Shown here: piece by piece, positions 5,882-53,746 of the stretch
Layout: each line of letters starts with the position of its first letter
Position numbering within the stretch: the stretch's first letter is position 1
Assembly (NCBI RefSeq): GCF_056712565.1
Contig: NZ_CM160072.1
Reading direction: 5' to 3' (one strand)
Length of the DNA stretch: 64,000 nucleotides
Position numbers and translations under genes: made by a program
The notes under the pieces: model-generated
Told to the model about the DNA's origin: nothing
Seen by the model: the letters and a program-made list of their open reading frames with translations, nothing else
The model's database searches: none

Positions 5882-6433
5882 GAATGAAAAACTTAGATAT
5901 GCATTTACAGTTCAATTCATTTTTCGTCATCAGTTAATTACACATAAAATTAAAAGTAAGAATATATCTACCCTGTGAATGAGTAAGGCGGATTTATATA
6001 GTTTGTAATTAGTTTAAATGTAAGCAGTTCGTCAGAGTGCGTATTCCGCTCTATTCGATCACGGATTGGCCGTTATGACCCGATCTCGATGGAAGTTATT
6101 GGGTGATCCCCTTCCATGAAAATATGCACCGAAGCTCCCGCAGAGGTTTCCGTGGGCGAAGGCATGATTCTGTCCGAGAGCCGGATGTGTTAGAAGCGCA
6201 TGTCCGCTTCGATGAGCGGGGTGTGGAAACAGGATTTATGGTCAGGACAGTAAGGCACCGCCAATCGAAAGAGGCGGCAACAGATATGCCTGACCTGTAA
6301 AATTACCGCGCCACATCTTGACTCTACCCGTTTTCCAAGCGCCCCCCCTTATAGAACGTACACTGGATGGTGATACCGGCTATACATCGCATATTTGACA
6401 GTCAGCTTGCTGAATTTTTCATTGGCTGCAGCA

Positions 6434-7009: not shown

Positions 7010-7016
7010 AAAAACC

Positions 7017-8345
7017 TCAGCTTATGGGAACTTCAATCTGGGCCCGGGCAACCACAACCTCATTTTTTATCACATAGCATTCTACCATGTGATCTCCGCG
7101 GAAGTCGGTAGTTTCTTTCTTCGTACAGTAGCCGCCGTCCGAAACGATTTGTCCCCGGATCATATTTCTTCTGCGTGCTTCGTCACCCACGTTCAGTACC
7201 TTCCACATAACGGTGTAGGGTTCCTCTGCCTCCATTTCTGTCAAGTCTGCCCGGAAAAGGAGAGATTTTCGAGCGGAGAGGCGGAATCTTCTGATAAGCA
7301 TCTCCCTCAGGCTTCTGGGAGGGAAACCATCCTGGGTTACGGTACAGTCAAGGTTGAGTGAGTACCTGATATCCACCGGATATTTATCCTCTATAAACTC
7401 TTCGGTATCGGTCCAGGGAACAGCATCTGCCGCATGCGATTCCAGACCAAGACGGGCTTCCATAATACCCACTTTACGTCTGGGGAAGGCTCGTCCGAAC
7501 ACTTTGCGCCAGCGGTCATTTTCACTGGCAGCCCCCTCAGCGTCTAAGGCATCACAACATAATTCATACGCGTGTTTCGCTGCCCGGCCAAACCAGGGAG
7601 ATTTAACACGTACATGCTGATTACTGCCTAACGCGAGATACCTTTCCTTTCTCTCCTCATTTGACAGATATTCAAAAAAGTCTCTGGCGAGGGCTCCCAG
7701 GCTGCCATTTCCGGTATTGTCATAATCTGATGTTGATGAAAGAAAGCGATACGCTAGTGTGTCTATCAGTAAGCCACCCATATTGACGCCATGCAGGTTC
7801 TTCCAGGCTCTGATCATTTTACACAGCTTGCGCAGATTATTGGATTTATCTCGCGAAAATGCGGTCATGGCCGCCTTTTCGTGAAGAGGTTTTGTAATGC
7901 GCCATGCTCCTCCATTATAGCTTTCAGGGAATTTAAAGCTGTCATCATCCTGTCTGAATACAGGTTGAACCTCGACATAAAAGTTTTTAAAGATGATCTG
8001 AACAACCAGTCTGTCCTTTTTCACAGTCTGGTCAGGATATTCTTCCGCCAGAATGTTTCTGACATCTGTAAGCAATGCAGACTGACCATTATCCTTACGG
8101 TTATAATATTCATACTGATTGGGGGGCATAATATAAAGCATATCCAGATCGGATATGCCTTTTATTGCGGTATGTCTGCCTACTGACCCCACTTTCAAGC
8201 GGTTTGCTACCCGGGAACTCGTTCCTCTGAACGCAAGATTTAATGACTTGGTTATTTTTCGATAGTGATAGCTGATCTTTTTTGCCTGTTTGAGGTCAAG
8301 ATTCAAATTTTCAAGAAATTCGCTGAACAATTCCCTGTGGCTCAT
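7017..8345 (-). CDS. SMODS/CD-NTase-like nucleotidyltransferase with about 120-aa C-terminal extension
   Basis: Pol-beta-type NTase signature GSVGRHTAIKGISDLD (GS-x10-[S]DhD) and downstream acidic strand YVEVQP; 442 aa. Confidence 0.55.
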   Translation of the reverse strand: MSHRELFSEFLENLNLDLKQAKKISYHYRKITKSLNLAFRGTSSRVANRLKVGSVGRHTAIKGISDLDMLYIMPPNQYEYYNRKDNGQSALLTDVRNILAEEYPDQTVKKDRLVVQIIFKNFYVEVQPVFRQDDDSFKFPESYNGGAWRITKPLHEKAAMTAFSRDKSNNLRKLCKMIRAWKNLHGVNMGGLLIDTLAYRFLSSTSDYDNTGNGSLGALARDFFEYLSNEERKERYLALGSNQHVRVKSPWFGRAAKHAYELCCDALDAEGAASENDRWRKVFGRAFPRRKVGIMEARLGLESHAADAVPWTDTEEFIEDKYPVDIRYSLNLDCTVTQDGFPPRSLREMLIRRFRLSARKSLLFRADLTEMEAEEPYTVMWKVLNVGDEARRRNMIRGQIVSDGGYCTKKETTDFRGDHMVECYVIKNEVVVARAQIEVPIS

Positions 8346-8448: not shown

Positions 8449-8666
8449 CGTAAGCGTTAACGGAGTGCCGTATTGACGCTTATTTATTGGTGAGTACTAC
8501 GTTCCATGGCAGGAGTTCGTCAACTCGGTTGGAAGGCCATTCCGGCAGTACGCTCAGGATATGGCTCAGATACGCTTCCGGATCGATATCGTTCAGTCGG
8601 CAGGTGCCGATCAGCCCGTACAACAGTGCTCCTCGCTCGCCGCCGTGATCGCTGCCGAAGAACATA
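8449..8666 (-). pseudogene. IS66-family transposase 3' fragment with element terminus (GTAAGCG...)
   Basis: 61-aa ORF ending ...LYGLIGTCRLNDIDPEAYLSHILSVLPEWPSNRVDELLPWN resembling IS66 TnpC C-terminus; GTAAGCG terminal motif at about 8449; abutted by IS911. Confidence 0.45.
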
Positions 8667-8685
8667 ATGAATCGCCACGGATAAT

Positions 8686-9498
8686 CTAGACACTTCCGAG
8701 CCGTTGATAATACTGGTTTTCATATTCTGTCGGTGACATCTGTTCGCTAGAACCATGCCGACGCTTACTGTTATAAAACATTTCGATGTAATCAAAAATA
8801 TCACTGCGGGCTTCTTCCCGCATTCCGTAGATCTTTTTCTTTATCCGTTCACGTTTCAACAACTGGAAAAAACTTTCTGCAACCGCATTATCATGGCAGT
8901 TACCGCGACGGCTCATGCTACCCTCCAGGCCGTGTGATTTCAGGAACGACTGCCACTCATGGCTTGTGTACTGACTGCCCTGATCCGAATGAACCAGCAC
9001 CTGTTTTTCGGGATTACGCCGCCATACAGCCATCAGCAGTGCGTTCAGGACAATGTCCTTTGTCATCCGGGATTGCATGGACCAGCCGATAATTTTGCGT
9101 GAGAACAGATCAACAACAACGGCAAGATACAGCCAGCCTTCGTGGGTCCTGATGTAGGTTATGTCCGTTACCCAACGCTCATCAGGAGCATCCGGATTGA
9201 ACTGTCGCTGGAGCCTGTTGGGTGACATGATACTGGCCTCGCCTTTACGTGCCCGCGGGCTTCGGTATCCGACCTGAGCCTTTATTCCGACACGTTTCAT
9301 CAGTCTCCAGACTCTGTTTACTCCGCACTGTTGCCCGCTGTCACGCAGATCCAGATGGATTTTGCGATAACCATAGACGCATCCCGATTCCAGCCAGAAC
9401 TGTTTAATCTGTCCTGTCAGTCTCAGGTCTGCCTGATGGCGTTGTGAATGCGGCTGCTGAAGCCAGGCGTAAAAACCACTGGGATGAACATCCAGCAC
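8686..9498 (-). CDS. IS911 transposase OrfB (DDE integrase domain)
   Basis: 270-aa ORF with IS3-family catalytic region (HSDQGSQYTS.., CHDNAVAESFF). Confidence 0.8.
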   Translation of the reverse strand: MLDVHPSGFYAWLQQPHSQRHQADLRLTGQIKQFWLESGCVYGYRKIHLDLRDSGQQCGVNRVWRLMKRVGIKAQVGYRSPRARKGEASIMSPNRLQRQFNPDAPDERWVTDITYIRTHEGWLYLAVVVDLFSRKIIGWSMQSRMTKDIVLNALLMAVWRRNPEKQVLVHSDQGSQYTSHEWQSFLKSHGLEGSMSRRGNCHDNAVAESFFQLLKRERIKKKIYGMREEARSDIFDYIEMFYNSKRRHGSSEQMSPTEYENQYYQRLGSV

Positions 9499-9554
9499 CC
9501 GACAGAGCAGGCGAACAGGCCAGCAACAGGTGTTGTCACGGATAAAGGCGTACC

Positions 9555-9842
9555 TCAGTCGGACAGCTTTGCGAAGTACGCCGCCTTTTTTAATATTTCA
9601 TTCTCCATTTCAATGCGTTGTAGCTTTTTCCTCAGCTTACGTATTTCGATTTGTTCTGGTGTTATCGGAGAGGCTTTTGGTGTTTTGCCCTGACGCTCAT
9701 CACGCAGTTGTTTGACCCATCTTGTCATTGTGGAAAGGCCAACATCCATAGCTTTGGCGGCATCTGCCACCGTGTATTTCTGGTCAACAACCAGTTGAGC
9801 GGATTCGCGTTTAAACTCTGCGCTAAAATTTCTTTTTTTCAT
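9555..9842 (-). CDS. IS911 OrfA (HTH transposition protein)
   Basis: [49 protein letters not shown].. ; start trimmed to internal Met. Confidence 0.75.
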
Positions 9843-10859: not shown

Positions 10860-11627
10860 CTCGGTAGTGCATCCAATTAGTAGAATATGTGTTTTTCGAT
10901 AAATGCTCCGATCACTTTTTCGTGGATCTCAACTGAGCGTGAGAAGCAGATTGTTTACGAGCCAACCGCTTAATGTGGGTGCGTAGCGTCAGATTATTAC
11001 GCTCAATGCGTTGGGTGAATATTTTGCCGGTCAGATGCTTATTCTTCGGCACCACCCGGCCATAGCTGTCCCAGTCATCGCTGGTGAGCATGCCGATGTT
11101 GAAGGGTGTAAGCAGTGCCAGTAGCTCCCGGCACGTTTGATCGGTTCGGGGACCAAAAGTGTAGGCCAGTACACCGCCTGTTTTGGTGTTGTACGCGTAC
11201 CAGAGCCAGTGTAGCCGGGCTTTACTGCCAACGTAGCTCCATTGCTCATCAAGCTCGCAGATAAGCGCCACATCAGCATGGGCAACAGGCGAAGAAGTTA
11301 TTTGCGTTGGTGCGAGTTTTTTAAAGTCCGGATGATGGTGTTAATACCAATTTTCAGTGTCCTGGCGGTATCGCGAACCCCGGCACCATTAAAGGCCATT
11401 TCAGTGATCATCTCTTTCATACCCGGCTTACGTGCTTGATAAGTATAAGTGAGCTGAAACACACGGTGGCAGTCACGGCAGCGAAATCTGTCACGGCCTT
11501 TAGGGTTCTGACCATGGCGGTAAACCTGAGCTGACTGACAACGGGGACAATGAATATTAACGCTGGCCATGAGATAACCTCAAAAGCCCGTATTATACAT
11601 CAGATTCAACCAATTAGAGGCATCACC
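10860..11627 (-). mobile_element. Divergent IS1-family insertion sequence
   Basis: InsA-like (11298..11570) and InsB-like (10912..11271) ORFs; ends resemble IS1 IRs (GGTAGTGCATCCAA... / ...GGCATCACC); InsA only about half identical to the canonical IS1 InsA at 17483. Confidence 0.65.
11298..11570 (-). CDS. insA: IS1-family InsA-like protein (divergent isoform)
   Basis: 90 aa, Zn-finger CPRCQS..CRDCHR and HTH resembling IS1 InsA. Confidence 0.7.
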   Translation of the reverse strand: MASVNIHCPRCQSAQVYRHGQNPKGRDRFRCRDCHRVFQLTYTYQARKPGMKEMITEMAFNGAGVRDTARTLKIGINTIIRTLKNSHQRK

Positions 11628-11822
11628 CTTTCCTACATTCGTAGGACTTTGATTACATATAGCAAGGGTTAATTCTTATATACATAGAATAAATTAGGAA
11701 TATAATGAATTTTATCGTGACGACCTTATTTATAATTAATTTATATTGTCAGAGAAATTAGTGTCCACAACATGAAGCCTTACAAAGAGATTCTATGATT
11801 TAAAAAAAATAAGAGCCAGCTT

Positions 11823-13292
11823 ATGCATATCGATTCGACTGAAAAAAATAATAAACAAAAGTTGGGCTTGCTTGCGCTAACATCCATTGTCGTGAGCTCG
11901 ATGATCGGCAGCGGCGTTGACGGACTCCCCCAGAATATGGCGGAGAATTCTGCCGTGGGCCCGGTGGCGATAGCATGGATAGTCTGTGGTATCGGCATGT
12001 TTTTCATCTCCAGAACTTTTATCGTGCTGTCAAACATTAGACCTGATCTCCAGTCAGGAGTTTATATGTATGCCCGGGAAGGGTTCGGCCGATTTACGGC
12101 ATTTAACGTCGCCTGGGGCTACTGGCTGATGACTATATTCAGCAACGTCGCCTTTGCCATTATGGTGATGGATACGCTGAATTATTTCTTACCAGGTGAT
12201 TTCAAGGGAGGGAACAATATTCCTTCCGTTATCGGTGCCTCTTTGCTGATATGGGGATTCAACTTTTTAGTCCTCTCCGGTACCCGCATTGCCGGGTCGA
12301 TTAACATCGTCGGCACGCTGGCCAAACTGATCCCGCTGGTGGCCTTTATTATTATTCTCATGCTGTTTATGAAGTACACCACGTTCGCAGATAACGTCTG
12401 GGGGCACAGCGCGAGTAAGGCCAGTCAGGACCTAGGCTCTATTTTCTCACAGGTAACTTCACCGCTTAGCGTGGCACTCTGGAGCTTCATCGGCGTTGAG
12501 GGGGCTGTCGCTCTTTCCGGTCGGGCCAAAAATAAACGCGACGTGGGTAAAGCCACATTCATTGGCTTCGTTGTATCACTGATTATCTGTCTGCTGGTCT
12601 CCATCCTGCCGTTTGGCGTGCTGACTCAACATGAGCTCAGCGCAATTCCAACCCCATCCACCGCCGGTATTCTGAAGATTGTTGTCGGTGAATGGGGGAA
12701 GATTATGATTATCTTGGGGGTGCTGATTTCGGTGCTTACCAGCTGGCTGGCGTGGACCATCATCTGCGCCGAACTGCCTATGGTGGCCGCGCAGAACGGC
12801 ACATTCCCGAAACCGTTCAGCAAAAAAAATGTGAAGGGTTCGGCCTCGGTTTCGCTTTATATAAGCAGTGCGTTTATGCAAATCGTCGTACTTCTGGTCT
12901 ACTTTTCTAACGATGCCTGGCTTGCAATGCTGGCTATCTCTACCCTGACCGTTTTACCTGCGTATTTAATGACCACGGCATACCTGTTTAAACTATGTAT
13001 TAGCGGCGAGTATGCCAGCTATACCACGAATCACAGCCGCAGCGCCGCGCTGGTCAGCAGTATTATCGGCTTTGTATTCTGCCTGTTTATGTTCTACGCC
13101 AGTGAAATCAAATATCTGGCGATGGTTCCGGTGCTGCTTACGCTGGGCGTGCCCCTGTTTATCTGGGCAAGAAAAAAAGACGATCGCGCAGATAAAATAT
13201 TTACGCTACGCGAACTGGCATTTTTTATTTTACTGCTGGTCCTCGACATCATTGTTTTTATTCTACTGCATTATAAAACGATACATTTTTAG
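11823..13292 (+). CDS. APC-superfamily basic amino acid antiporter, ArcD/YdgI-like (paralog 1)
   Basis: 489 aa polytopic; N-terminal KLGLLALTSIVVSSMIGSGV..LPQNMA and GVYMYAREGFG, FIGVEGAV..SGRAKNKRDVGKAT motifs as in arginine:ornithine-type antiporters. Confidence 0.7.
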   Translation: MHIDSTEKNNKQKLGLLALTSIVVSSMIGSGVDGLPQNMAENSAVGPVAIAWIVCGIGMFFISRTFIVLSNIRPDLQSGVYMYAREGFGRFTAFNVAWGYWLMTIFSNVAFAIMVMDTLNYFLPGDFKGGNNIPSVIGASLLIWGFNFLVLSGTRIAGSINIVGTLAKLIPLVAFIIILMLFMKYTTFADNVWGHSASKASQDLGSIFSQVTSPLSVALWSFIGVEGAVALSGRAKNKRDVGKATFIGFVVSLIICLLVSILPFGVLTQHELSAIPTPSTAGILKIVVGEWGKIMIILGVLISVLTSWLAWTIICAELPMVAAQNGTFPKPFSKKNVKGSASVSLYISSAFMQIVVLLVYFSNDAWLAMLAISTLTVLPAYLMTTAYLFKLCISGEYASYTTNHSRSAALVSSIIGFVFCLFMFYASEIKYLAMVPVLLTLGVPLFIWARKKDDRADKIFTLRELAFFILLLVLDIIVFILLHYKTIHF

Positions 13293-13396
13293 TCCAGATT
13301 AATTCACAGCAAGTTAAGGTGACGATAATGTCTGTTTCTTGGGCATGACATCCTCACAGTTAAATACTATCTGAACAGTAACCGTGGAGACACCTA

Positions 13397-15766
13397 ATGA
13401 AATTTAACCACAATCTTTTATTTATTTCCTCACAATATCTTGATGGCGACAACCCTTCGCAGCAGGTACTGGAAGAGCTTCAAACCGAACTCGCGGAACG
13501 CGGTTTTAAAATTCATATCACGCACCAGATCTCTGATGGATTAAAAATCATCGAAAAAAGCCCCCAATACAGCGGGATTGGTTTTTACTGGGAGCCAGAC
13601 AATCCGACCTTTGCAGAAGAGCTACAGCACTTTATCAGCATATTCCGCAAAAGAAATGCCACGACGCCGCTGATAATTTTCTCAGAACAGAATATTACCG
13701 ATCGTATCCCACTCGACGTCTTAAAAGAGGTCAGCGAATATGTTTATCTGTTCTCTGAATCCGCAGCCTTCACTGCCAATCGACTGTACTCCTTAGTCCA
13801 CCGCTATGCGGATAAGCTTCTTCCTCCCTACTTTAAAACCCTTAAGGACTTTACCGAGGACGGTGACTATTACTGGGACTGCCCGGGGCATATGGGGGGA
13901 ATGGCCTATCTGAAACATCCTGTTGGCATTGAGTTCATTAACTTCTTTGGCGAAAACATGATGCGCGCTGATATTGGCGTGGCTACCGCGGAGATGGGGG
14001 ATTATCTGATCCACGCCGGACCGCCTAAAAAATCGGAAGAAATTGCGGCCCGACTGTTTGGCTCTGATTGGACCTTCTACGGTGTTTCCGGCTCATCGGG
14101 GTCGAACCGTATTGTGGCCCAGGCTGCGGTTGGCGCAGATGAAATTGCCATTATTGACCGAAATTGCCACAAGTCACTTAATCATGGCCTGACCTTGTCT
14201 CAGGCAAGGCCGGTTTACCTGAAACCTACCCGCAACGCGTGGGGGCTGATTGGGCCTATCCCGACCGGGCGCCTGAAGAAGGCCAGTATTGATGCGCTGG
14301 TGGCAAACAGCCGACTGGCATCTGGTGCGGTCAGCCAGTCCCCGTCCTACGCCGTGGTAACCAACTGCACCTATGATGGCTTCTGTTATAACGTGAACGA
14401 TGTAGTCAGACACCTGGGTGAAAGCGCACCGCGCATCCATTTTGATGAAGCATGGTATGCCTATGCGCGTTTCCATCCGCTATACCAGAGTCGCTATGCA
14501 ATGGACGCGGAGGAAACGCCAAATCGTCCAACCCTATTCGCCGTACAGTCCACCCATAAAATGCTGCCCTCACTCTCCATGGCCTCAATGATTCATGTGA
14601 AGAAAAGCGATCGCGCGCCGCTTAATTTCGATGACTTTAACGATGCCTTTATGATGCACGGCACGACCTCACCCTACTACCCGATCATTGCATCAATTGA
14701 TGTGGCAGTAAGCATGATGGAGGGTGAATCCGGTTATTCGCTTGTGCAGGAGTCAATTGAAGAAGCGATTGCCTTCCGTAAAGCCGTGGTCAGCGTCAAG
14801 CGCCAGCTCCAGGAGCAGGAAGGTGGTGACGCCTGGTTCTTCGATGTGCTTCAGCCAACCGAAGTGCAGGACAGCGATTCTGGGCAGCGATACAGTTTTG
14901 AAGAGGCACCCGTATCGCTGCTGAGCCACAGCGCCGACTGCTGGTCGCTGCGCTCCGGTGAGCGCTGGCACGGTTTTGCCGATGATGATCTGGTCGAAAC
15001 CAACAGTATGCTCGATCCAGTAAAAGTGACCCTGACTTGTCCAGGGATCGGCCCGAAGGGAGAATACCAGAAAAACGGTATTCCGGGATATTTGCTGACC
15101 CGTTTTCTCGATGACCGTCGCATTGAAATTGCCCGTACTGGTGACTACACCGTGCTGATCCTGTTCTCCGTCGGCATCACCAAAGGCAAATGGGGAACTC
15201 TGATTGAAAGCCTGCTGGCCTTTAAAAAGCATTACGACAATGACGATCTGGCCACAGATGCTATCCCGTCGCTGAAAGCGCATTCTCCACACTACGACAC
15301 GCTAACCCTCAAGGAGCTATGTCAGATAATGCATGAAAAAATGGATGAGCTGGAGCTGATGTCGCATATCAACGACGCGGTAAACACCGATCCGGAACCA
15401 GTTATGACCCCGGCAGAAGCCTATCAGAAAGTCGTACGCTACAAAACCGAGCATATCCGGCTGGATGATTTTAGCGGCAGAATTGCCGCCAGCATGCTCG
15501 TCCCATATCCCCCAGGCATTCCTGTACTGATGCCGGGCGAACGGATGCCGCAAGGTAACAAGGGCATTATTGGCTATCTGCGCGCCCTGCAGGAATTCGA
15601 TAAGCAATTCCCAGGTTTTGAACATGAGATCCAGGGCGTTAACGTCGATGAAAACGGGGACTTCTGGGTCAGAGCGATTGTGGAAGAAGAACGCGATGGG
15701 CAGTCGCTACCCGGCCACATAACCTTTAAACGCCAGGTCTCTGGTATTAAAAAGGGCCGCCAGTAG
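13397..15766 (+). CDS. PLP-dependent Orn/Lys/Arg decarboxylase, AdiA-like (biodegradative arginine decarboxylase family)
   Basis: 789 aa; DRNCHKS, VTNCTYDGFCYN, HFDEAWYAYARF, QSTHKMLP (PLP lysine), GKWGTLIESLLAFKKHYD closely parallel recalled AdiA motifs, less so CadA/SpeF. Confidence 0.8.
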   Translation: MKFNHNLLFISSQYLDGDNPSQQVLEELQTELAERGFKIHITHQISDGLKIIEKSPQYSGIGFYWEPDNPTFAEELQHFISIFRKRNATTPLIIFSEQNITDRIPLDVLKEVSEYVYLFSESAAFTANRLYSLVHRYADKLLPPYFKTLKDFTEDGDYYWDCPGHMGGMAYLKHPVGIEFINFFGENMMRADIGVATAEMGDYLIHAGPPKKSEEIAARLFGSDWTFYGVSGSSGSNRIVAQAAVGADEIAIIDRNCHKSLNHGLTLSQARPVYLKPTRNAWGLIGPIPTGRLKKASIDALVANSRLASGAVSQSPSYAVVTNCTYDGFCYNVNDVVRHLGESAPRIHFDEAWYAYARFHPLYQSRYAMDAEETPNRPTLFAVQSTHKMLPSLSMASMIHVKKSDRAPLNFDDFNDAFMMHGTTSPYYPIIASIDVAVSMMEGESGYSLVQESIEEAIAFRKAVVSVKRQLQEQEGGDAWFFDVLQPTEVQDSDSGQRYSFEEAPVSLLSHSADCWSLRSGERWHGFADDDLVETNSMLDPVKVTLTCPGIGPKGEYQKNGIPGYLLTRFLDDRRIEIARTGDYTVLILFSVGITKGKWGTLIESLLAFKKHYDNDDLATDAIPSLKAHSPHYDTLTLKELCQIMHEKMDELELMSHINDAVNTDPEPVMTPAEAYQKVVRYKTEHIRLDDFSGRIAASMLVPYPPGIPVLMPGERMPQGNKGIIGYLRALQEFDKQFPGFEHEIQGVNVDENGDFWVRAIVEEERDGQSLPGHITFKRQVSGIKKGRQ

Positions 15767-15840
15767 GCGGGGGAAAGAACAATACCGTCGGATCGCCTGC
15801 AATCCGACGGCAATATTATAGAATAGCTGAGGGAAACGTT

Positions 15841-17340
15841 ATGGCAGAGCAATCTTCAGATGTAAAAAATAGTGACAATAGCGCCGGAGGACATAAGCTG
15901 GGGCTTATATCCCTCATCGCTATTGTCGTTAGCTCCATGCTGGGAGGCGGCGTTTTCAGTCTGCCGCAAAACACGGCGGCCTCTTCTGCACTAGGGCCAG
16001 TAATCATTGCATGGATTATTGCCGGGATCGGTATTTATTTTATCGCAAACTCCTTTCGCGTACTATCAGATCTGCGCCCGGACCTTCAGGCTGGAGTGTA
16101 TATGTATGCCCAGGAAGGTTTTGGTTCCTTTATTGGCTTTAACGTCGCCTGGGGCTACTGGCTGATGACCGCATTTGGCAACGTTGCCTTTGCGGTAATT
16201 TTAATGGATGCTTTTAATCAGTTTATGCCGGGGGTTTTTACGGATGGTAATAATCTGAACTCCATTATCTGCGGCTCAGTGCTGATCTGGGGCTATAATT
16301 TTCTTGTTCTGTCCGGGACGAAAGTGGCCGGATTTGTTAACACCTTGGGAACCATCGCCAAGCTCGTCCCTCTGATCCTATTCGTATTACTGCTGGGTGT
16401 GCTGATCGATTATTCGGACCTGTTTAAAAACTTTTGGGGAGAATCACCCGCGATCCTCAGTGGCAACGGAAATGACGCCGCACCAGTATCGCTGCTGTCT
16501 CAGATTCTGGCACCGATGACCGTAACGCTCTGGGCCTTTATTGGCGTCGAGGGAGCGGTTGTTCTATCCGGACGTGCCAAAAATAAACAGGACGTAGGGA
16601 AAGCCACACTGATCGGCTTTCTGCTGGCGCTAATTATTTATATGTTAATGTCCATTCTGCCGTTCGGTGTAATGCCTCAGGCAGAACTAGCGCAGGTCAG
16701 TAACCCCTCTACCGCAGGCGTGCTCGCCCACGTTGTCGGTCAGTGGGGCGACTGGCTGATGAGCGCGGGGCTGATTATTTCTGTTCTGGCCGGCTGGCTT
16801 GCCTGGACCATGCTATGCGCTGAAATACCGATGGTCGCAGGACAGAAAGGCGCTTTCCCGCGCGCGTTTGCCCGAACGAACAGTAAACAGGCGGCCAATG
16901 TGTCACTGTGGGTTAGTAGCTTTGTGATGCAGGCGGCCATGTTACTTGTTTATTTTTCAAATAATGCTTGGACCACCATGTATAATATCAGTGCGCTGAT
17001 GGTTGTTCCGGCCTATATTACCACCACGCTGTATCTGACCAGTATTTGCAGAAACGGAAAATATGATCAGTATGCAAAAAAAGGCCGCAGGCTGGCTTTG
17101 TCCAGCGGTGTTTTAGGCTCGCTATTCTGTCTGTTTATTCTTTACGCCAGCCAGATTGAGTATGTTGCATTAATTCCTATCCTGTTGACCTGTGGTCTGC
17201 CGGTCTTTATCTGGTCAAGAAAAGAAAAAAATGATGGTCAGCCGATATTTACCAAAAAAGAGCTGATTTATCTGATTATGCTGTTGCTGTGCGATATTAT
17301 CGTCGTTGCCCTGTTTATTGGTGGATATTTAAAGGTATAA
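15841..17340 (+). CDS. APC-superfamily basic amino acid antiporter, ArcD/YdgI-like (paralog 2)
   Basis: 499 aa; same motif set as 11823..13292 (KLGLISLIAIVVSSMLGGGVFSLPQN..). Confidence 0.7.
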   Translation: MAEQSSDVKNSDNSAGGHKLGLISLIAIVVSSMLGGGVFSLPQNTAASSALGPVIIAWIIAGIGIYFIANSFRVLSDLRPDLQAGVYMYAQEGFGSFIGFNVAWGYWLMTAFGNVAFAVILMDAFNQFMPGVFTDGNNLNSIICGSVLIWGYNFLVLSGTKVAGFVNTLGTIAKLVPLILFVLLLGVLIDYSDLFKNFWGESPAILSGNGNDAAPVSLLSQILAPMTVTLWAFIGVEGAVVLSGRAKNKQDVGKATLIGFLLALIIYMLMSILPFGVMPQAELAQVSNPSTAGVLAHVVGQWGDWLMSAGLIISVLAGWLAWTMLCAEIPMVAGQKGAFPRAFARTNSKQAANVSLWVSSFVMQAAMLLVYFSNNAWTTMYNISALMVVPAYITTTLYLTSICRNGKYDQYAKKGRRLALSSGVLGSLFCLFILYASQIEYVALIPILLTCGLPVFIWSRKEKNDGQPIFTKKELIYLIMLLLCDIIVVALFIGGYLKV

Positions 17341-17482
17341 GTCCGAGTTAAATCTTTACTGGGCTAGTAATGCCGCCTTTTAAACAAGAAGGGCGGCAAT
17401 CTTACTGAAATTAGTATGCTGCAAATCGGTAATGCTGCCAACTTACTGATTTAGTGTATGATGGTGATTTTAAGGTGCTTGC

Positions 17483-17758
17483 GTGGCTTCCATTTCCATC
17501 AGATGTCCTTCCTGCTCCGCTACTGAAGGCGTGGTGCGTAACGGCAAAAGCACTGCCGGACATCAGCGCTATCTCTGCTCTCATTGCCGTAAAACATGGC
17601 AACTGCAGTTCACTTACACCGCTTCTCAACCCGGTACGCACCAGAAAATCATTGATATGGCCATGAATGGCGTTGGATGCCGGGCAACTGCCCGCATTAT
17701 GGGCGTTGGCCTCAACACGATTTTACGTCACTTAAAAAACTCAGGCCGCAGTCGGTAA
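17483..17758 (+). CDS. insA: IS1 InsA
   Basis: [40 protein letters not shown]... 91 aa. Confidence 0.9.
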
Positions 17759-18180
17759 CCTCGCGCATACAGCCGGGCAGTGACGTCATCGTCTGCGCGG
17801 AAATGGGCGAACAGTGGGGCTATGTCGGGGCTAAATCGCGCCAGCGCTGGCTGTTTTACGCGTATGACAGGCTCCGGAAGACGGTTGTTGCGCACGTATT
17901 CGGTGAACGCACTATGGCGACGCTGGGGCGTCTTATGAGCCTGCTGTCACCCTTTGACGTGGTGATATGGATGACGGATGGCTGGCCGCTGTATGAATCC
18001 CGCCTGAAGGGAAAGCTGCACGTAATCAGCAAGCGATATACGCAGCGAATTGAGCGGCATAACCTGAATCTGAGGCAGCACCTGGCACGGCTGGGACGGA
18101 AGTCGCTGTCGTTCTCAAAATCGGTGGAGCTGCATGACAAAGTCATCGGGCATTATCTGAACATAAAACACTATCAATAA
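17677..18180 (+). CDS. insB: IS1 InsB (transposase frame; expressed as InsAB' by frameshift)
   Basis: 167-aa ORF overlapping insA in -1 frame. Confidence 0.85.
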
Positions 18181-18646: not shown

Positions 18647-19162
18647 TTATGAGCTGGCATCAGAAAAATGTGCCAGTAATTTTTTATTAATGACTTCAAA
18701 CAGTTCCTGTTCATCATGAGTCAGATAATCCCAGATTTCTTTCAGATACATGCTTTGTGCAAGAGTGAGCCTCTGAATAAAAAACATACCTTCAGATGTC
18801 AGACTGATTTTTTTAGCACGGCGATCCTCCCTGCTATCCGTCCTTTTTACATATCCGGCTTTTTCTAAAAAATCTGTAATGCGGGTAATATTAGTTCTGG
18901 TAAACTGAAGTTTCTGGCTTATCTCTGAAGGTGACAGACAATGGTTCTCCGCTGCGAATAATGTGGTGAGAACCATATATGCTGAGTGATTTATTCCATA
19001 CGCCCCCAGAAATTCAGATATATTATCCTGCATTCTTTTATTTGTGCGAATACAGAGCTGCATCAACAAATGTTCCCGAAAGGGATATGCGGGGTCTTTG
19101 TTTTTTTGGTGTCTGATTATTTTTTCTAATGTGTCTGTGTTATTCATTTCATTATTCTCCAT
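18647..19162 (-). CDS. MarR-family transcriptional regulator, PapX/SfaX-like (fimbrial-operon-associated)
   Basis: winged-HTH region LSPSEISQKLQFTRTNITRITDFLEKAGYVKR; recalled similarity to 17-kDa PapX-type proteins; start trimmed to MENNEM. Confidence 0.6.
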   Translation of the reverse strand: MENNEMNNTDTLEKIIRHQKNKDPAYPFREHLLMQLCIRTNKRMQDNISEFLGAYGINHSAYMVLTTLFAAENHCLSPSEISQKLQFTRTNITRITDFLEKAGYVKRTDSREDRRAKKISLTSEGMFFIQRLTLAQSMYLKEIWDYLTHDEQELFEVINKKLLAHFSDASS

Positions 19163-19364
19163 ATTACTGAAACACACTGTCTGTGTACAAGCGCGCATCA
19201 GTCATCCGGTAAACATCGACTTTCCACTACAATTTATTCCTACCTGATTTCTGTATGACAGAGTAGTCCCGACAGGCAGACGGATAAATTCCCGCAGGTA
19301 AAAGAACATAAATGCTGGCTGCTGACAAGTCTGTGAAAAAGGATTATTGTAGTGGTTCACAAAA

Positions 19365-20157
19365 TCAGGACACCGGAATAACCTGTTTCCACTTTTCTTC
19401 ATGTAAGCAAGGCGGTAAACCATCGTTGTTCGTGTGAGGTCGATAAACGTTGTAATAACCATTAATCCACTGGTTTATATCACGTACCGCATGGATAAAA
19501 TCACCATAACCACCTTTCGGAAGCCATTCATTTTTAAGGCTGCGAAAGACTCTTTCCATCGGCGAATTATCCAGGCCATTCCCTCTGCAACTCATACTTT
19601 GCATTACCCCATAACGCCAGAGTAACTTTCTGTATTTATTGCTTTTATACTGAACACCTTGATCTGAATGAAACAGCAGACGGCCATCACGTGATCGTGT
19701 TTCCAGTGCATTACGCAAAGCCCTACACACCAACTCAGCATCAGCGGTTAATGAGAGGGCTGAACCGGTAATCCGCCGTGAATATAAATCAACAACGAGC
19801 GCGAGCTAACACCATTTGTCATGCAGGCGAATAAAACTGATGTCGCCGCACCAGACGCGGTCTGGTGCGGCGGGGTGAAATTGCCGGTTCAGTAAATTTG
19901 GCAATGGCGGACTTTTGTCTTCGTTGACCCGGTAGTGATGTTTAACCATCTGTCGACTTGTCAGCCCGCATTCCCGCATCAGTCGTCGTGCCAGCCACCG
20001 GCCTGCATCAACGCTACTCTGGCGCAACATCTGACTGATTGCACGGCTACCGGCTGCGCCACGACTGAGAGCATGGAAAGCCCTCACCCGACTTCGTAAG
20101 TCAATTCTTTGCACATTAACAGGACGCGTCACCTGCGCGTAATAAACGCTACGGTTA
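19365..20157 (-). pseudogene. IS3-family transposase OrfB remnant (split into two frames, 5' end cut by IS1)
   Basis: ORFs 19806..20171 and 19365..19733 carry IS3-family OrfB motifs ([26 protein letters not shown]); frame break near 19740-19800; abuts IS1 end at 20158. Confidence 0.6.
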
Positions 20158-20172
20158 GGTAATGACTCCAAC

Positions 20173-20676
20173 TTATTGATAGTGTTTTATGTTCAGATAA
20201 TGCCCGATGACTTTGTCATGCAGCTCCACCGATTTTGAGAACGACAGCGACTTCCGTCCCAGCCGTGCCAGGTGCTGCCTCAGATTCAGGTTATGCCGCT
20301 CAATTCGCTGCGTATATCGCTTGCTGATTACGTGCAGCTTTCCCTTCAGGCGGGATTCATACAGCGGCCAGCCATCCGTCATCCATATCACCACGTCAAA
20401 GGGTGACAGCAGGCTCATAAGACGCCCCAGCGTCGCCATAGTGCGTTCACCGAATACGTGCGCAACAACCGTCTTCCGGAGCCTGTCATACGCGTAAAAC
20501 AGCCAGCGCTGGCGCGATTTAGCCCCGACATAGCCCCACTGTTCGCCCATTTCCGCGCAGACGATGACGTCACTGCCCGGCTGTATGCGCGAGGTTACCG
20601 ACTGCGGCCTGAGTTTTTTAAGTGACGTAAAATCGTGTTGAGGCCAACGCCCATAATGCGGGCAGTTGCCCGGCAT
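20173..20676 (-). CDS. insB: IS1 InsB
   Basis: identical 167-aa product. Confidence 0.85.
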
Positions 20677-20870
20677 CCAACGCCATTCATGGCCATATCA
20701 ATGATTTTCTGGTGCGTACCGGGTTGAGAAGCGGTGTAAGTGAACTGCAGTTGCCATGTTTTACGGCAATGAGAGCAGAGATAGCGCTGATGTCCGGCAG
20801 TGCTTTTGCCGTTACGCACCACGCCTTCAGTAGCGGAGCAGGAAGGACATCTGATGGAAATGGAAGCCAC
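20595..20870 (-). CDS. insA: IS1 InsA
   Basis: identical 91-aa product. Confidence 0.9.
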
Positions 20871-21399: not shown

Positions 21400-22473
21400 C
21401 TACTGATACTGTATGCCAGTATGTTTCATGCCTGCCGCTGAAAACGGCAATATCCAGGGCCAGACATATTCACCATTCATATTTCTGCATTTCTGTACAA
21501 TTTTCTCAGAAAGCGTCTCATCAATTCTTTCACGCAACTTCTCCTGCTGTCTTAAAATACTTTCGCATATTTCGAAATCATCTTCCTGCATCAGCATTTC
21601 GGCGCATTTAATGATTTCTGCCCGTTCATGCAGCACAGAGGAATGATTATAGAGCCAGTTTACAAACAGCAATGCTTCCGGATATTGCCCCCATAACGGG
21701 TGGTATGTGGCATAATAATCTTCGGCAGTATCCGGACCGCCTGAAAAGTTATGCCATACAGCAAGTGGAAATGGATGCAGATTTCCGCACAGTATTTCTG
21801 CGATGTAAGTATTTGCCGCAAAGCCGCGACGAAATGCAGTTGCAGCTTTTACCAGTTCCCCATTAAGAAAATGCAGAAGGCCGAGTTCATACCAGTAAGG
21901 TGAAAATTCATCTGCATGTTCCTGCAGTATATGGCGTGCCTGTTCATGAGCGCCAGTGCGTAACAGTTCCGGTCCCAGTAGCCAGCGTGCACCATGATTA
22001 TCTTCGGGATTGTAATCCAGTATTTTTTCAATGAGCATGATGGCATCCTGATGACGCCGTAAATGTGCATTTGCCAGGATTGCCGCATAGAGGGCACGAA
22101 GAAAAGGTCGGTTGTCAGGATGTATCCAGATGATTCTGCCACTGAAACCTTCAGGGATAAGACGATTGCCAACTGCCAGCCCTTTAAGGGCAGCATTCAG
22201 CGCCTTACGCGGGGCATTCTGCTCCAGAAATACGTATGCCAAGTGAGCGTGTACATCAATAAAGTCATTCTCCTGTCGGGCAAGGCGCCTGAGTTTGTTG
22301 ATGTAACTTGTTTCGCTGATTTCATCCGCATCGTATGCATCAATCAGTTCTTCAAACTCATCCAGCAACGAGCCAAACCAGGTTTCCGGAAATATGAAAC
22401 AGCCCTGGTTATCGTTCACTTCAAAGCGTAATTTGCCAGTCATATTCTGAACCTGTAAAAAAGGATGGACCAT
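21400..22473 (-). CDS. Hypothetical protein (helical-repeat-like), island cargo next to integrase
   Basis: 357-aa ORF, no motif I can assign; good coding length and position. Confidence 0.4.
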   Translation of the reverse strand: MVHPFLQVQNMTGKLRFEVNDNQGCFIFPETWFGSLLDEFEELIDAYDADEISETSYINKLRRLARQENDFIDVHAHLAYVFLEQNAPRKALNAALKGLAVGNRLIPEGFSGRIIWIHPDNRPFLRALYAAILANAHLRRHQDAIMLIEKILDYNPEDNHGARWLLGPELLRTGAHEQARHILQEHADEFSPYWYELGLLHFLNGELVKAATAFRRGFAANTYIAEILCGNLHPFPLAVWHNFSGGPDTAEDYYATYHPLWGQYPEALLFVNWLYNHSSVLHERAEIIKCAEMLMQEDDFEICESILRQQEKLRERIDETLSEKIVQKCRNMNGEYVWPWILPFSAAGMKHTGIQYQ

Positions 22474-22698: not shown

Positions 22699-23964
22699 TC
22701 ACCTTTTCAGTGGATTGTTAACTTTTGCATATTCAAACGGACTGATACACTCCTCCCTGTTTGCATCCAGAAAATCTGCCCACCATTGCAGCATAAGCCG
22801 ACGTTCTTCCAGATGTTCTGCTTTATGAATATACGCGGCACGTACTCCGTTGCGCTCCTGATGACTCATCTGACGTTCAACCGCATCTCTTGACCATAAG
22901 CCGGATTCAATCAATGCACTGCACGCCATCGCCCGGAATCCATGGCCACAGACTTCCTTGGTTGTGTCATACCCCATCACTCTGAGGGCCTTATTTACGG
23001 TATTTTCACTGATTGGTTTACGTGGGTCGTGTGCTCCCGTAAAGATCAGACCATTTTCACCTGCCCATGTCTGAAGTTCTGCCAGTATGGCTACAGCCTG
23101 TTGGCTGAGTGGCACAAGATGTGGTGTTCGCATCTTGGAGCCCCGGTATGAAAATTTTACGCCTGGCAGAGGTTCGCGTTCGGCTGGAATAGTCCACATG
23201 GCATTGTCAATATCAATTTCAGACCAGCGGGCATATCTGAGTTCACTGGAACGAATAAAAACCAGTAAATTCAGCATAACTGCCAGTCGGGTGACAGGCT
23301 GGCCTTTATAACCGTCAATACGCGACAGAAGTTCAGGCAGGCGTGAAAGATCCAGAGCAGGGCGATGCTGGCGTTTTACCGTGGTCAATGCACCAGCCAT
23401 ATCCAGAGCCGGGTTATATCTGATGATGCCAGACTGTACGGCATAACGCATTACAGCAGATATTCTTTGCTGCAGACGACTGGCGATTTCATAAATTTGT
23501 TTAACTTCTGCAGCACGAACAGGGATAAGCAGATCCGGGGTACTGAGTGTTGTGATATCCCGGTTGCCGATAAAGGGGAAAACGTGAGTCTCGAGGCTTT
23601 TGAGTACTTTATCGCTGTGTGATTGTGCCCATTGTTTATTACTGGCATGCCAGCGTCGTGCAATATGTTCAAAAGAGAGCTGTAAATCAGGGACTACTTT
23701 TTTAGCTCTTTTCTGTTCGCAAGGGTCAACCCCCTCCGAAATCAGTTTTCGGGCCTCATCCCGTTTTGTACGAGCTTCGGAGAGAGAAACTTCCGGATAC
23801 ACACCAAGTGCCAGGGTTTTCTCCTTACCCAGAATACGATAACGGAGACGCCAGTAACGGGAACCATTAGGATGTACCAGCAGGAACATGCCAGCCCCGT
23901 CAGTGAGTTTATAAGCCTTGTCAGTGGGCTTTGCAGCCCGGATTTTTGCGTCAGTCAGTGCCAT
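22699..23964 (-). CDS. int: P4-type (CP4-like) tyrosine integrase
   Basis: 421 aa; N-terminal MALTDAKIRAAKP..KAYKLTDGAGMFLLVHPNGSRYWRLRYR typical of P4-family integrases; C-terminal HGFRAMACSALIESG and R..Y region; adjacent to tRNA 3' end. Confidence 0.85.
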   Translation of the reverse strand: MALTDAKIRAAKPTDKAYKLTDGAGMFLLVHPNGSRYWRLRYRILGKEKTLALGVYPEVSLSEARTKRDEARKLISEGVDPCEQKRAKKVVPDLQLSFEHIARRWHASNKQWAQSHSDKVLKSLETHVFPFIGNRDITTLSTPDLLIPVRAAEVKQIYEIASRLQQRISAVMRYAVQSGIIRYNPALDMAGALTTVKRQHRPALDLSRLPELLSRIDGYKGQPVTRLAVMLNLLVFIRSSELRYARWSEIDIDNAMWTIPAEREPLPGVKFSYRGSKMRTPHLVPLSQQAVAILAELQTWAGENGLIFTGAHDPRKPISENTVNKALRVMGYDTTKEVCGHGFRAMACSALIESGLWSRDAVERQMSHQERNGVRAAYIHKAEHLEERRLMLQWWADFLDANREECISPFEYAKVNNPLKR

Positions 23965-24127
23965 AGTTCAGCCTTCTGAATGCGTTAAAGAGGGTACAAA
24001 TTCTGTCGAACTGGGGTATACCCGCAATTATACCCACACAATGGGGTTGATGTGGGGGGAATCTGGTTGAGTTCGGTAGAATTGATTTGGAGGCAGAACG
24101 CTTAAATTGTGGCGTTCTGAAACGAAA

Positions 24128-24160
24128 AACGGACCTCCGTGGAGGTCCGTTGATATGAAC
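24128..24160 (-). terminator. Rho-independent terminator downstream of tRNA-Phe
   Basis: GGACCTCCacGGAGGTCC hairpin followed by T-run on minus strand. Confidence 0.6.
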
Positions 24161-24161
24161 T

Positions 24162-24237
24162 TGGTGCCCGGACTCGGAATCGAACCAAGGACACGGGGAT
24201 TTTCAATCCCCTGCTCTACCGACTGAGCTATCCGGGC
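24162..24237 (-). tRNA. pheU: tRNA-Phe (GAA)
   Basis: Reverse complement reads GCCCGGATAGCTCAGTCGGTAGAGCAGGGGATTGAAAATCCCCGTGTCCTTGGTTCGATTCCGAGTCCGGGCACCA. Confidence 0.95.
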
Positions 24238-27082: not shown

Positions 27083-28384
27083 TTACAGCATGAAGCTACC
27101 CAGCACGAAGCCGAAGCAAACGGCCAGGGCAACGCCCAGAGTACCCGGGATGAAGAACGGATGGTTGAAGACGAATTTACCGATACGGGTAGTACCCGTG
27201 TCATCCATCTGTACCGCAGCAACCAGTGTCGGGTAGGTCGGCAGAATGAACAGACCAGACACCGCAGCGAAAGAAGCAACAGCGGTCAGCGGAGAAACGT
27301 TCAGTGCCAGAGCCATCGGCATCAGTGCTTTTGCGGTTGCAGCCTGAGAGTACAGCAGAGCAGAAGCAAAGAAGAAGATGACGGCCAGCAGCCACGGATG
27401 ACCCTGAATCACTTCACCAGCGGTATCTTTGATCCAGTCGATGTTGTTGGAAACGAAAGTATCGCCCAGCCACGCAACACCCAGGATACAAATACAGGCG
27501 CTCATACCTGCTTTGAAGGTGCTGGAGTTGAGAATGTTGTCGGTATCGACTTTACAGATAACGGTGGTCAGAGTTGCAACGCTGAGCATGATGATCAGGA
27601 TTGCGTTGGTGGTGTTCATCAGCGGTTTTTCAACCAGACCCATGCTTGGGCTGTTGATGATTGCATAGATAACCACGCCAACTACGCCCAGCAGGAACAG
27701 CCAGACGGACGTTTTTGCACCGGATTTGATTTCAATCTGCTTTTCACCGCGCAGTTCAACCAGGCCCTCTTCCAGACGCTTGCGATAAATCGGATCGTCA
27801 GAGAGTTTGGAGTTGAACAGCATAGTGACCAGGAAGGACATCACCAGAACCGCCAGCAGGGTGGACGGGATGACCACGGAGAGCAGATGGAGGTAGCTGA
27901 TGCCATGACCTTCCATTACGGAAGACATGTAAACCACTGCCGCTGAGATTGGCGATGCGGTGATCGCAATCTGCGCGGATACCACTGCAGTAGACAGCGG
28001 ACGGCAAGGTTTAACGCCTTGTTCCTTCGCAACTTCAGCGATAACTGGCAGTGTCGCCAGAGAGATGTTGCCAGTACCAGCAAAGATTGTCAGGAAATAG
28101 GTCACGATCGGTGCGAGGATCGTGATGTATTTCGGGTTACGGCGCAGCAGCTTTTCTGTCTGATGAACCAGATAGTCCAGACCGCCAGCAACCTGCATGG
28201 CAGAAATAGCGGCGATAACCGCCATGATAATGGAAATGACATCGAACGGGATGTTACCGGGTTTAACGCCAATAGCGGCAAGAACCAGCACCCCCAATCC
28301 GCCTGCAAAACCAATACCTATTCCCCCCAATCTGGCGCCCAAGAAGATCGCCAGCAAAACTATGATGAGTTCTACAACTAGCAT
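27083..28384 (-). CDS. dcuA: Anaerobic C4-dicarboxylate transporter DcuA
   Basis: 433 aa polytopic, recalled DcuA sequence. Confidence 0.9.
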   Translation of the reverse strand: MLVVELIIVLLAIFLGARLGGIGIGFAGGLGVLVLAAIGVKPGNIPFDVISIIMAVIAAISAMQVAGGLDYLVHQTEKLLRRNPKYITILAPIVTYFLTIFAGTGNISLATLPVIAEVAKEQGVKPCRPLSTAVVSAQIAITASPISAAVVYMSSVMEGHGISYLHLLSVVIPSTLLAVLVMSFLVTMLFNSKLSDDPIYRKRLEEGLVELRGEKQIEIKSGAKTSVWLFLLGVVGVVIYAIINSPSMGLVEKPLMNTTNAILIIMLSVATLTTVICKVDTDNILNSSTFKAGMSACICILGVAWLGDTFVSNNIDWIKDTAGEVIQGHPWLLAVIFFFASALLYSQAATAKALMPMALALNVSPLTAVASFAAVSGLFILPTYPTLVAAVQMDDTGTTRIGKFVFNHPFFIPGTLGVALAVCFGFVLGSFML

Positions 28385-34822: not shown

Positions 34823-35692
34823 TTATTTCGCCTGTGGTGCAGTTTTGCTGGTGGATTGAACACGTAAGTGATGCAGCGCGCGTAAGCATTGATCCTGGGT
34901 TAGCGGTTGGGCGTTATTTGCCGCTACGGTGCGAACATAGACCTGACATGGCACACCCGCGAGTTTTTTCAGTCGGGGGCTGAAATCAAGCATTCGGCGA
35001 GTGATCGCCTCCACTTCTTTACCCGGCGTTGCTTCACGCGTTTTCACCACTGCGCCGCTAAATTGTTCATTGCCACTTTCATCTTTAAAGCGGTAAAGCA
35101 CCGCCAGATAATGGTTGAACAAGTTATGTTTCCATTCCGGTTGGGAATAGGTGTCATATTCCAGATTGCCATTTTCCTGGCAGTCAACGTCGTATAACGG
35201 CAGGAAATCTAACAGTGAGGTAATACGTAATGCCAGTTCACGCATTTCCGCATTATTAATTGCATGAATGATTGCTCGCGCCAGCATTTCAATCTGCAAC
35301 TCATTGACGACTAACTCACATTTGCTACCGTCATGTAGCGTTAATACGAAGGTAAGATTTTCGCCCTGATCATCGGTAAGTTCCAGCGTGTTAACCCGAC
35401 GATTAATATCGGCATTTTTAAGCTCATCAACCAGAATTTCTGGGATATTTTCTGCCATTTTCTTAATGACTTTATCGCGAGCTTGTTCATACTGAAGGCG
35501 TGCAGCAGCATCCAGTTTATGCTTTTGATGCAGACGACTTTCCAGCGCAATCAGAAGGTCGCGCAATTCCATGGCAGACATAAAGAACAACGATTCTTTA
35601 TTGCGAGGTTCTTTAATTTTCAGCGCCAGTGCAATGAAATTATTACTCTTGCGAATAACACCGGTATTAACACCCTTGATGCTTATGGCCAT
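34823..35692 (-). CDS. yjeJ: Uncharacterized protein YjeJ
   Basis: 289-aa ORF in conserved position. Confidence 0.75.
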   Translation of the reverse strand: MAISIKGVNTGVIRKSNNFIALALKIKEPRNKESLFFMSAMELRDLLIALESRLHQKHKLDAAARLQYEQARDKVIKKMAENIPEILVDELKNADINRRVNTLELTDDQGENLTFVLTLHDGSKCELVVNELQIEMLARAIIHAINNAEMRELALRITSLLDFLPLYDVDCQENGNLEYDTYSQPEWKHNLFNHYLAVLYRFKDESGNEQFSGAVVKTREATPGKEVEAITRRMLDFSPRLKKLAGVPCQVYVRTVAANNAQPLTQDQCLRALHHLRVQSTSKTAPQAK

Positions 35693-35926
35693 GTAGGTTC
35701 TCCCTAACCATTTCTCAATTAAATAATTAATTTTAGTTTATAAGCCAGATAAATGGGCTTGGTAGTAATAGTTGTTAAAATAACATAAATAGCCGTGCTC
35801 ACTCTATATAAACAGAAAAGAAAGGTTAATTATTGGTGTTGGTTATATAAAGAGTAACAACAGCAATGTATATGAATAATTAAAGGTTATGCAACGGGCA
35901 AAGATTAAACTTCCCTGTTTAATCAG

Positions 35927-36955
35927 TTACTGCTGGCGTAGCTGGAGATCCAGCGGCGTTTTGCTGGGTTCGCCGCCAATTTCTCGCGCCAGTTTAGGCA
36001 CCAGATATCCCGACACCAGTGTCAGCAACTCACGCATAATCTGCCGTGCTTCGTCATCACTCACCATAAAATGCGCCGCGCCCTGTACTTTATCGAGCAC
36101 ATGCAGGTAATACGGCATCACGCCCGCATCGAACAACGCATTACTCAGGTTTGCCAGCGTTTGCGCGTTATCGTTCACACCACGTAACAGAACGCTCTGG
36201 TTCAGCAAAGTAACGCCCACCCGGCGCAACTTAGCCATCGCCTGACGGAATGTTTCATCTACCTCATTGGCATGGTTGATGTGATTCACCAGCAAGATTT
36301 GCAGCGTAGAATGAGAAAAGCGTTCAACCAGCGCATCTGTGATGCGTGCCGGGATCACAATCGGCAGACGGCTGTGAATCCGCAGACGTTTGATATGCGG
36401 GATGGCTTCCAGTTGTGTGAGCAACCAGTCCAGCTCGTGATCTTTCGCCATCAGCGGATCGCCGCCGGAGAAAATCATCTCGTCCAGTTCCGGATGCGCA
36501 GCAACATACTCAAGTGCAGTCTGCCAGTTACGCTTATTGCCCTGATTTTCGGCATAGGGGAAGTGGCGACGGAAGCAATAGCGGCAATTTACCGCGCAGC
36601 CGCCTTTGACCAGCAAAAGCGCCCGGTTGTGGTATTTATGCAACAAACCAGGCACTACGCTATGCTGTTCTTCCAGCGGGTCGGTGGAGAATCCGGGCGC
36701 GACGACAAACTCATCTTGCGAGGTAAGTACCTGACGCAAAAGCGGATCGTTCGGATTGCCTTTCTCCATGCGATCGATAAATGAGCGGGGCACACGCAGG
36801 GCAAACAGCTTTTTGGCGCTGCGTCCGGCCAACAGTTTTTCGTCCGCGTCTATATTCAAAAGACGCAGAAGTTCATCAGGATCGGTCACAACATCGGCAA
36901 GTTGCGTTAACCAATCTTCTCTGGATGGGGTATTTAGGGTTACAATATGCGCCAT
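35927..36955 (-). CDS. epmB: EF-P beta-lysylation protein EpmB (lysine 2,3-aminomutase-like radical SAM)
   Basis: CAVNCRYCFRRHF radical-SAM Cys motif; 342 aa. Confidence 0.9.
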   Translation of the reverse strand: MAHIVTLNTPSREDWLTQLADVVTDPDELLRLLNIDADEKLLAGRSAKKLFALRVPRSFIDRMEKGNPNDPLLRQVLTSQDEFVVAPGFSTDPLEEQHSVVPGLLHKYHNRALLLVKGGCAVNCRYCFRRHFPYAENQGNKRNWQTALEYVAAHPELDEMIFSGGDPLMAKDHELDWLLTQLEAIPHIKRLRIHSRLPIVIPARITDALVERFSHSTLQILLVNHINHANEVDETFRQAMAKLRRVGVTLLNQSVLLRGVNDNAQTLANLSNALFDAGVMPYYLHVLDKVQGAAHFMVSDDEARQIMRELLTLVSGYLVPKLAREIGGEPSKTPLDLQLRQQ

Positions 36956-44918: not shown

Positions 44919-45136
44919 TTCTGAAAAATTACTGAATTAACAGCGAAGAATGGCGTGATAAGCGCCATTCTGTAGCATATGTTTTCATTTTTCCGCTAAA
45001 GGCCACAATTTAAGACTGGATATTTGATATCATCCAGGTATCAATTCTGTATTGGTTTTTACGCTGCCCGCTCAATGTTGGGCAGTGCAGTTCAGTGGGC
45101 GCGTTTTATACACGCGCTGAAATGAAGGATGGTTTC

Positions 45137-53670: not shown

Positions 53671-53746
<76 letters not shown>

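Follow-up and report, generated by a model that had tools for sequence, protein, structure and literature searches.

Junction between the integrase and pheU

Positions 22,699–24,237 of the window, the 64,000-nt stretch of DNA analysed here, comprise exactly an integrase gene and a tRNA-Phe gene, as an earlier reading made from the letters alone (the sequence-only reading) had delimited them. The features at this junction, and the DNA that adjoins it on the integrase side, are as follows.

22699–23964, minus strand: intact P4-type tyrosine integrase, 421 aa, ATG start (Pfam, NCBIfam PRK09692, PHROG 1 integrase, identity to P4 Int, motifs)
23965–24161, minus strand: spacer of 197 bp from the tRNA to the integrase; island-side arm of attL plus integrase leader
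24128–24151, minus strand: terminator-like hairpin with a T-run behind it, 10 nt past the tRNA and on the island's side of the presumed crossover
24162–24184, minus strand: attL core, formed by the final 23 nt of the tRNA (TTCGATTCCGAGTCCGGGCACCA), with an imperfect copy beyond the window, at the distal island end
24162–24237, minus strand: tRNA-Phe(GAA), the pheU gene (ARAGORN), intact and identical to K-12 pheU by alignment
1–24161, no strand: in all likelihood the integrase-proximal 24.2 kb of a pheU island of ~63.6 kb, whose remaining 39.2 kb lie upstream of the window

The integrase start lies 197 bp beyond the 3′ end of the tRNA and both genes are on the minus strand, in agreement with the distance of about 200 bp and the shared orientation claimed previously. 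The assignment of the enzyme to the P4 type was borne out by homology searches. Three Pfam domains were detected in the protein, PF13356 (Arm-DNA-bind_3, 2e-29), PF22022 (Phage_int_M, 1.3e-26) and PF00589 (Phage_integrase, 8e-17), and a tblastn search against phage records matched phage P4 Int at 54.9% identity over 97% of the integrase length (E = 7e-152). The integrase is full length: the Phage_integrase match spans model positions 8–170 of 172, and the motifs R238-SSEL, H341-G-F-R344 and Y378 are present. From what is known of the family, we take R238, H341-x-x-R344 and Y378 to be the active-site residues of the recombinase. A PDB sequence search with the integrase yielded structures of CP4-like integrases that cover just the N-terminal and central domains, and no solved catalytic-domain homologue on which the Lys and second His could be placed.

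The insertion site is pheU, as had been proposed. The tRNA at the same position in K-12 is pheU (b4134), and the site is identified by dicD, dsbD and cutA on one flank and by cadC on the far flank. On the side of the tRNA away from the integrase, dicD/yjdC is followed by dsbD, cutA, dcuA, aspA, fxsA, yjeH and groSL, and the right flank keeps the K-12 order on through frdABCD, three tRNA-Gly genes, mutL, hfq and hflX. The three tandem tRNA-Gly(GCC) genes (53671–53969, plus strand), at the glyV/X/Y position, have no adjoining integrase or island and belong to the backbone.

The hairpin at 24151–24128 is 10 bp long and GC-rich, is followed by a T-run and starts ten nucleotides past the CCA end; near-identical copies occur after the distal repeat described below and after K-12 pheU. 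Likewise, ~130 bp of the spacer between tRNA and integrase are 90–92% identical to the stretch that follows K-12 pheU. A crude scan of this spacer found no sigma-70 consensus promoter.

Accessory DNA and backbone in the window

The sequence-only reading had described everything from position 1 to about 24,160 as accessory, with defence genes, IS elements and lower GC content, and everything to the right as conserved backbone. Comparison with complete E. coli genomes supports both statements. With presence defined as at least 80% coverage, 1–24161 was found in 123 of 5426 genomes, and the genomes that match best are of ST95 type, among them S88 and an APEC O1:K1:H7 isolate. In contrast, 24238–48000 is present in 5402 of the 5426, with the K-12 gene order kept through hflX. 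The composition check that had been suggested gave the same division: GC content is 46.2% for 1–24161 versus 52.0% for 24238–64000, and GC3 is 0.34–0.48 in most island genes versus 0.57–0.61 in the flanking dicD, dsbD and dcuA. The right island boundary is fixed at 24161/24162, with accessory DNA at 1–24161 and backbone at 24162–64000. Two kilobases within the backbone are also low in GC, 35001–36000 (41.3%) and 45001–46000 (42.9%), corresponding roughly to yjeJ and yjeN/yjeO; they occur in nearly all E. coli genomes and are thus not recent islands.

The cargo in the window consists of the following features, the defence systems having been identified with PADLOC and the IS1 and IS3 elements being annotated in identical genomes.

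1322–5881, plus strand: complete QatABCD anti-phage system (PADLOC, full-length matches for all four proteins)
6434–8345, minus strand: type I CBASS (PADLOC), with a 2TM/SLATT effector at 6434–7009 and the cyclase at 7017–8345
8480–9842, minus strand: IS3-family transposase and adjoining transposase fragment (annotation of an identical genome)
10877–18180, no strand: antiporter, 789-aa Orn/Lys/Arg-family decarboxylase and second antiporter, with two flanking IS1
18647–19198, minus strand: MarR-family regulator, 183 aa, 38% GC, between IS copies
19365–20870, minus strand: IS3 remnant split by an IS1
21400–22473, minus strand: TPR-like hypothetical protein beside the integrase, with no family assigned; island cargo

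QatABCD and the two-gene type I CBASS adjoin each other (1322–8345). The Qat genes are markedly low in GC3 (0.34–0.36), and the decarboxylase cluster reaches 0.53–0.59. Three IS1 copies are present, and the IS1 and IS3 copies divide the cargo modules. The two IS1 that bracket the decarboxylase/antiporter cluster, one of them frameshifted, give it a composite-transposon-like layout. The best model for the decarboxylase is AdiA, at 740 bits, far under the AdiA cut-off of 1167 bits. This cluster sits in an island that borders the native cadCBA operon. At the left edge of the window, the ORF at 54–1190 (plus strand) begins upstream of position 1 and has a weak, repeat-like match to ChePep; SF-166, a strain otherwise near-identical here, is shorter by 9 bp and diverges from the window from about position 1094, within this ORF.

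The strain-specific occurrence of QatABCD, CBASS and the extra decarboxylase cluster, all within the first 24 kb, is explained by their membership of the pheU island. Beyond correct annotation, the finding is of little importance.

The distal junction of the island

The sequence-only reading had held that the window begins inside the island and that the distal att repeat must lie further upstream. Within the window, the tRNA 3′ end does not recur even with three mismatches allowed (0.00 expected by chance), and a mismatch-only search of the upstream locus for the 23-nt repeat was also negative; the repeat there differs by a deletion. It was located by reading and aligning the sequence of near-identical genomes and lies outside the window, for which its position is therefore inferred.

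Across the junction of tRNA and integrase, S88 and the window agree in every base of a 3001-bp stretch. In S88, the two repeats are at 4685049–4685071, in the tRNA, and at 4621491–4621512, beside cadC, a distance of 63,559 bp. The distal copy, TTCGATTCCGAGTCCGGCACCA, retains 22 of the 23 nt, with one G missing, and lies 39.2 kb upstream of the point corresponding to window position 1, so that the window does start inside the island. In SF-166, the distal repeat is TTCGATTCCGAGTCCG--CACCA (21/23 nt, two Gs missing), ~620 bp ahead of the cadC start codon. The second missing G of SF-166 is either strain-specific or an assembly error in the G-run, and S88 has the usual 1-bp deletion. In the extracted loci, attR is at 27189–27209 for SF-166 (L002) and at 1992–2013 for S88 (L009). 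The predicted upstream repeat thus exists beside cadC in both strains, in imperfect form.

A three-way alignment showed that the sequence from the repeat onward is that found after K-12 pheU, including the pseudogene yjdQ, and that the sequence before the repeat is island DNA. Correspondingly, K-12-like genomes begin to match the distal junction at the first base of the repeat and not before it. Just past the CCA, the sequence reads AGTTCATATC at attL versus AATTCATATA at attR and in K-12. These base differences support an origin of the two ends by recombination between attP and attB. The distal junction was found in 355 genomes. A BLAST search with the tRNA plus spacer against a 97.7-kb reconstruction returned two att-like sites only, 63.4 kb apart. 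An arrangement of tandem or composite islands was considered and rejected, as the 97.7 kb contain no internal att sites. No second integrase is annotated within the island; the only other one is an old remnant outside attR.

Upstream of the point corresponding to window position 1, the accessory DNA of SF-166 goes on with type VI secretion remnants and the grp operon, then with fragments of group II introns, an AlpA-like gene and a yee/CP4-like module (YeeP-like GTPase, WYL, DUF932, antirestriction, RadC/JAB, YeeU-CbtA), before cadC is reached. The AlpA-like ORF, ~27 kb upstream of the window, matches PHROG 2790, 'excisionase and transcriptional regulator' (E = 6e-10). An inovirus Gp2-family/replication-initiator-like ORF is also found in the island, whose cargo as seen consists of defence, metabolism and toxin-antitoxin genes. 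One upstream feature was delimited in the extracted loci:

L001 1–9092 and L002 1–11738, upstream of the window: grp operon stretch

This is a full glycyl-radical propanediol microcompartment operon (grpA-S), broken by maturase and reverse-transcriptase fragments of group II introns.

An older occupant of pheU

Comparison with an unoccupied site, which the sequence-only reading had proposed as a check, is provided by K-12, where the order is pheU–yjdQ–cadC without an island; the repeat is precisely the point from which K-12 is homologous to the distal junction. This comparison calls for one refinement, which is that the site holds a decayed P4-type integrase, yjdQ:

L003 2692–2854 (K-12) and L002 27406–27565 (SF-166, just outside attR): yjdQ remnant

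About 60 C-terminal codons remain, and they contain a stop as well as a deletion over the region of the catalytic Tyr. Past the SF-166 repeat, ~130 bp that are 90–92% identical to the spacer between tRNA and integrase lead into this 160-bp integrase remnant. The presence of the same remnant beyond attR and in K-12 indicates that an older island once occupied pheU. The 'empty' pheU site is therefore not naive, and the present island and what is left of an older one stand in tandem. A literature search returned no relevant work on yjdQ.

Relationship to known elements

The island is already known: it is PAI-S88-pheU, an ordinary island of a well-known kind, found in ST95-type pathogenic E. coli. 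PAI-S88-pheU was catalogued in the NMEC strain S88 (NC_011742, 4621378..4684940) as a 64-kb island of 48% GC at pheU, with PapX as its only listed determinant (PMC7545054, Desvaux et al. 2020). Site, boundaries and size coincide, with 64 kb published and 63,559 bp between the repeats, and the SF-166 copy has a GC content of 47.8% against the published 48%. S88 covers window 1–24161 at 100% identity; the alignment falls into two pieces that span 24,323 bp, ~160 bp over the 24,161-bp query, and nothing essential differs. The MarR-family gene at 18647–19198 is probably the 'PapX' listed for PAI-S88-pheU. This orphan PapX-like gene occurs here without any pap operon.

The closest relatives described at another site are the GI-pheV islands, which have the same 23-nt repeat and, in many strains, an attR that reads TTCGATTCCGAGTCCGG-CACCA, with one G missing; their only conserved gene is intP4, and their content is modular, with a partial yee module (PMC11537424, 2024). 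The pheU island shares with them the tRNA species, the 23-nt att repeat, the typical attR one G short, a P4-type integrase immediately past the tRNA, cargo that is modular and flanked by IS elements, and a yee module close to the distal end. It differs in its site, pheU next to cadC rather than pheV, and in its cargo, since GI-pheV carries pap, kps, sat or iuc whereas Qat, CBASS, the decarboxylase cluster and grp are found here.

K-12 has at pheU the same tRNA, terminator and degenerate integrase remnant as are found beyond attR in island strains, but lacks the island. A further comparison is phage P4, an 11.6-kb satellite phage that targets leuX. Both elements have a three-domain integrase (54.9% identity) and both are integrated into a tRNA gene with duplication of its 3′ end; unlike P4, the present element targets tRNA-Phe and has no phage genes.

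Origin and mobility of the island

Taken together, the junctions, the flanks and the genome comparisons leave us highly confident that window 1–24161 is the integrase-proximal part of an integrative island of ~63.6 kb at pheU, catalogued as PAI-S88-pheU and a pheU sister of the GI-pheV islands. We propose a plausible route by which it arose. The attP of the ancestral island would have mimicked the last ~23 nt of tRNA-Phe, and the P4-type tyrosine integrase would have recombined it with the 3′ end of pheU, serving as attB. At attL, this would have regenerated an intact tRNA, the 3′ flank of which, terminator included, would now be island DNA leading into the integrase gene. At attR, it would have left a partial tRNA 3′ end beside cadC, after which the old chromosomal flank with the decayed yjdQ resumes. 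The cargo, modular and IS-ridden (QatABCD, CBASS, decarboxylase/antiporter, grp, yee/CP4-like), would have undergone rearrangement after integration. For excision, Int and probably the AlpA-like factor would be required; in the She island of Shigella, excision by Int with an AlpA-like protein has reportedly been shown.

The imperfect attR, together with the lack of relaxase, type IV secretion and packaging genes, suggests that the island may now be largely fixed and vertically inherited in its lineage, with low or no autonomous mobility. The same argument for low mobility has been made for GI-pheV (PMC11537424). These features would also suit an integrase that is a relic, with the island of this lineage brought in, or replaced, through homologous recombination in the conserved flanks on a large stretch of chromosome received by conjugation or transduction. 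No conjugation or packaging genes are found in the island annotation and attR is imperfect; both ends lie in sequence common to other pheU islands and to the K-12 remnant, which offers ample homology; and in the sister GI-pheV islands, the grouping of intP4 alleles largely follows genome phylogeny (PMC11537424). Nevertheless, the integrase is intact and full length, and the boundaries fall exactly at the tRNA-derived repeat, a signature of site-specific recombination at some point. This route concerns the proximate arrival and is compatible with an older site-specific founding; we regard it as a possibility to be taken seriously, though we would not expect it to prove right.

The sequence-only reading had the island anchored at the tRNA, which is correct with the refinement that the island is modular. 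The same integrase type, at 91–100% DNA identity, adjoins pheU together with dicD in 1303 genomes, and the cargo of the window is present in only 123 of the genomes surveyed; much of the content must therefore have come, or been exchanged, after the founding integration. This integrase type is also found beside the other tRNA-Phe gene in many more genomes than 1303, with genes up to 99.4% identical. The differing counts (integrase at pheU in 1303 genomes, distal junction in 355, window cargo in 123), the GC3 contrasts and the IS1 and IS3 copies between modules together indicate that the scaffold of integrase, att sites and yee module is older and wider-spread than the cargo. Carried to its limit, this would mean that the integrase and att sites are nothing but a scaffold, to which most of the 24 kb, including the defence genes, the decarboxylase cluster and the PapX-like gene, was added later through IS1 and IS3, so that the whole is not one element with one history. 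The three IS1 and the IS3 remnants that part the modules, the GC3 of Qat (0.34–0.36) versus that of the decarboxylase cluster (0.53–0.59) and the uneven genome counts all speak for such accretion. With a single integrase, a single attL/attR pair and no att sites inside the island, it refines the account of a site-specifically founded island and does not replace it, and as an explanation in its own right we consider it unlikely.

The missing G of attR could itself be a feature carried by attP, given that an attR one G short recurs across the pheU islands of S88, E13, O19:H7 730V1 and JB2, whose island-side arm is also common (aligned), and has been published for GI-pheV. If the missing G were built into the attP of this island family rather than a product of decay, strand exchange would fall in the last bases of the tRNA (CACCA and just beyond), and the family might still be active in shuttling defence cargo such as Qat and CBASS from one tRNA-Phe gene to the other, a proposal that we think improbable as a whole.

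An identity as a P4-like satellite prophage or as an integrative conjugative element can practically be set aside: the element has an integrase 55% identical to P4 Int, together with the inovirus Gp2-family/replication-initiator-like and AlpA-like ORFs, but at 63.6 kb it is several times the size of the 11.6-kb P4 record, and the whole-island annotation contains no primase-helicase (alpha), capsid-size, sid, psu, delta, cos or packaging genes, as for a satellite prophage, and no relaxase, coupling protein or type IV secretion genes, as for a conjugative element.

In addition to the islands of this family, a different pheU element is present in E. coli LF82 (NC_011993, 4454229–4455043; L008). 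Its distal repeat comprises ~48 nt of the tRNA with the GGG intact, and the island gene adjoining the repeat encodes a ParA-family protein, which suggests that another integrase class uses the same tRNA in that strain.
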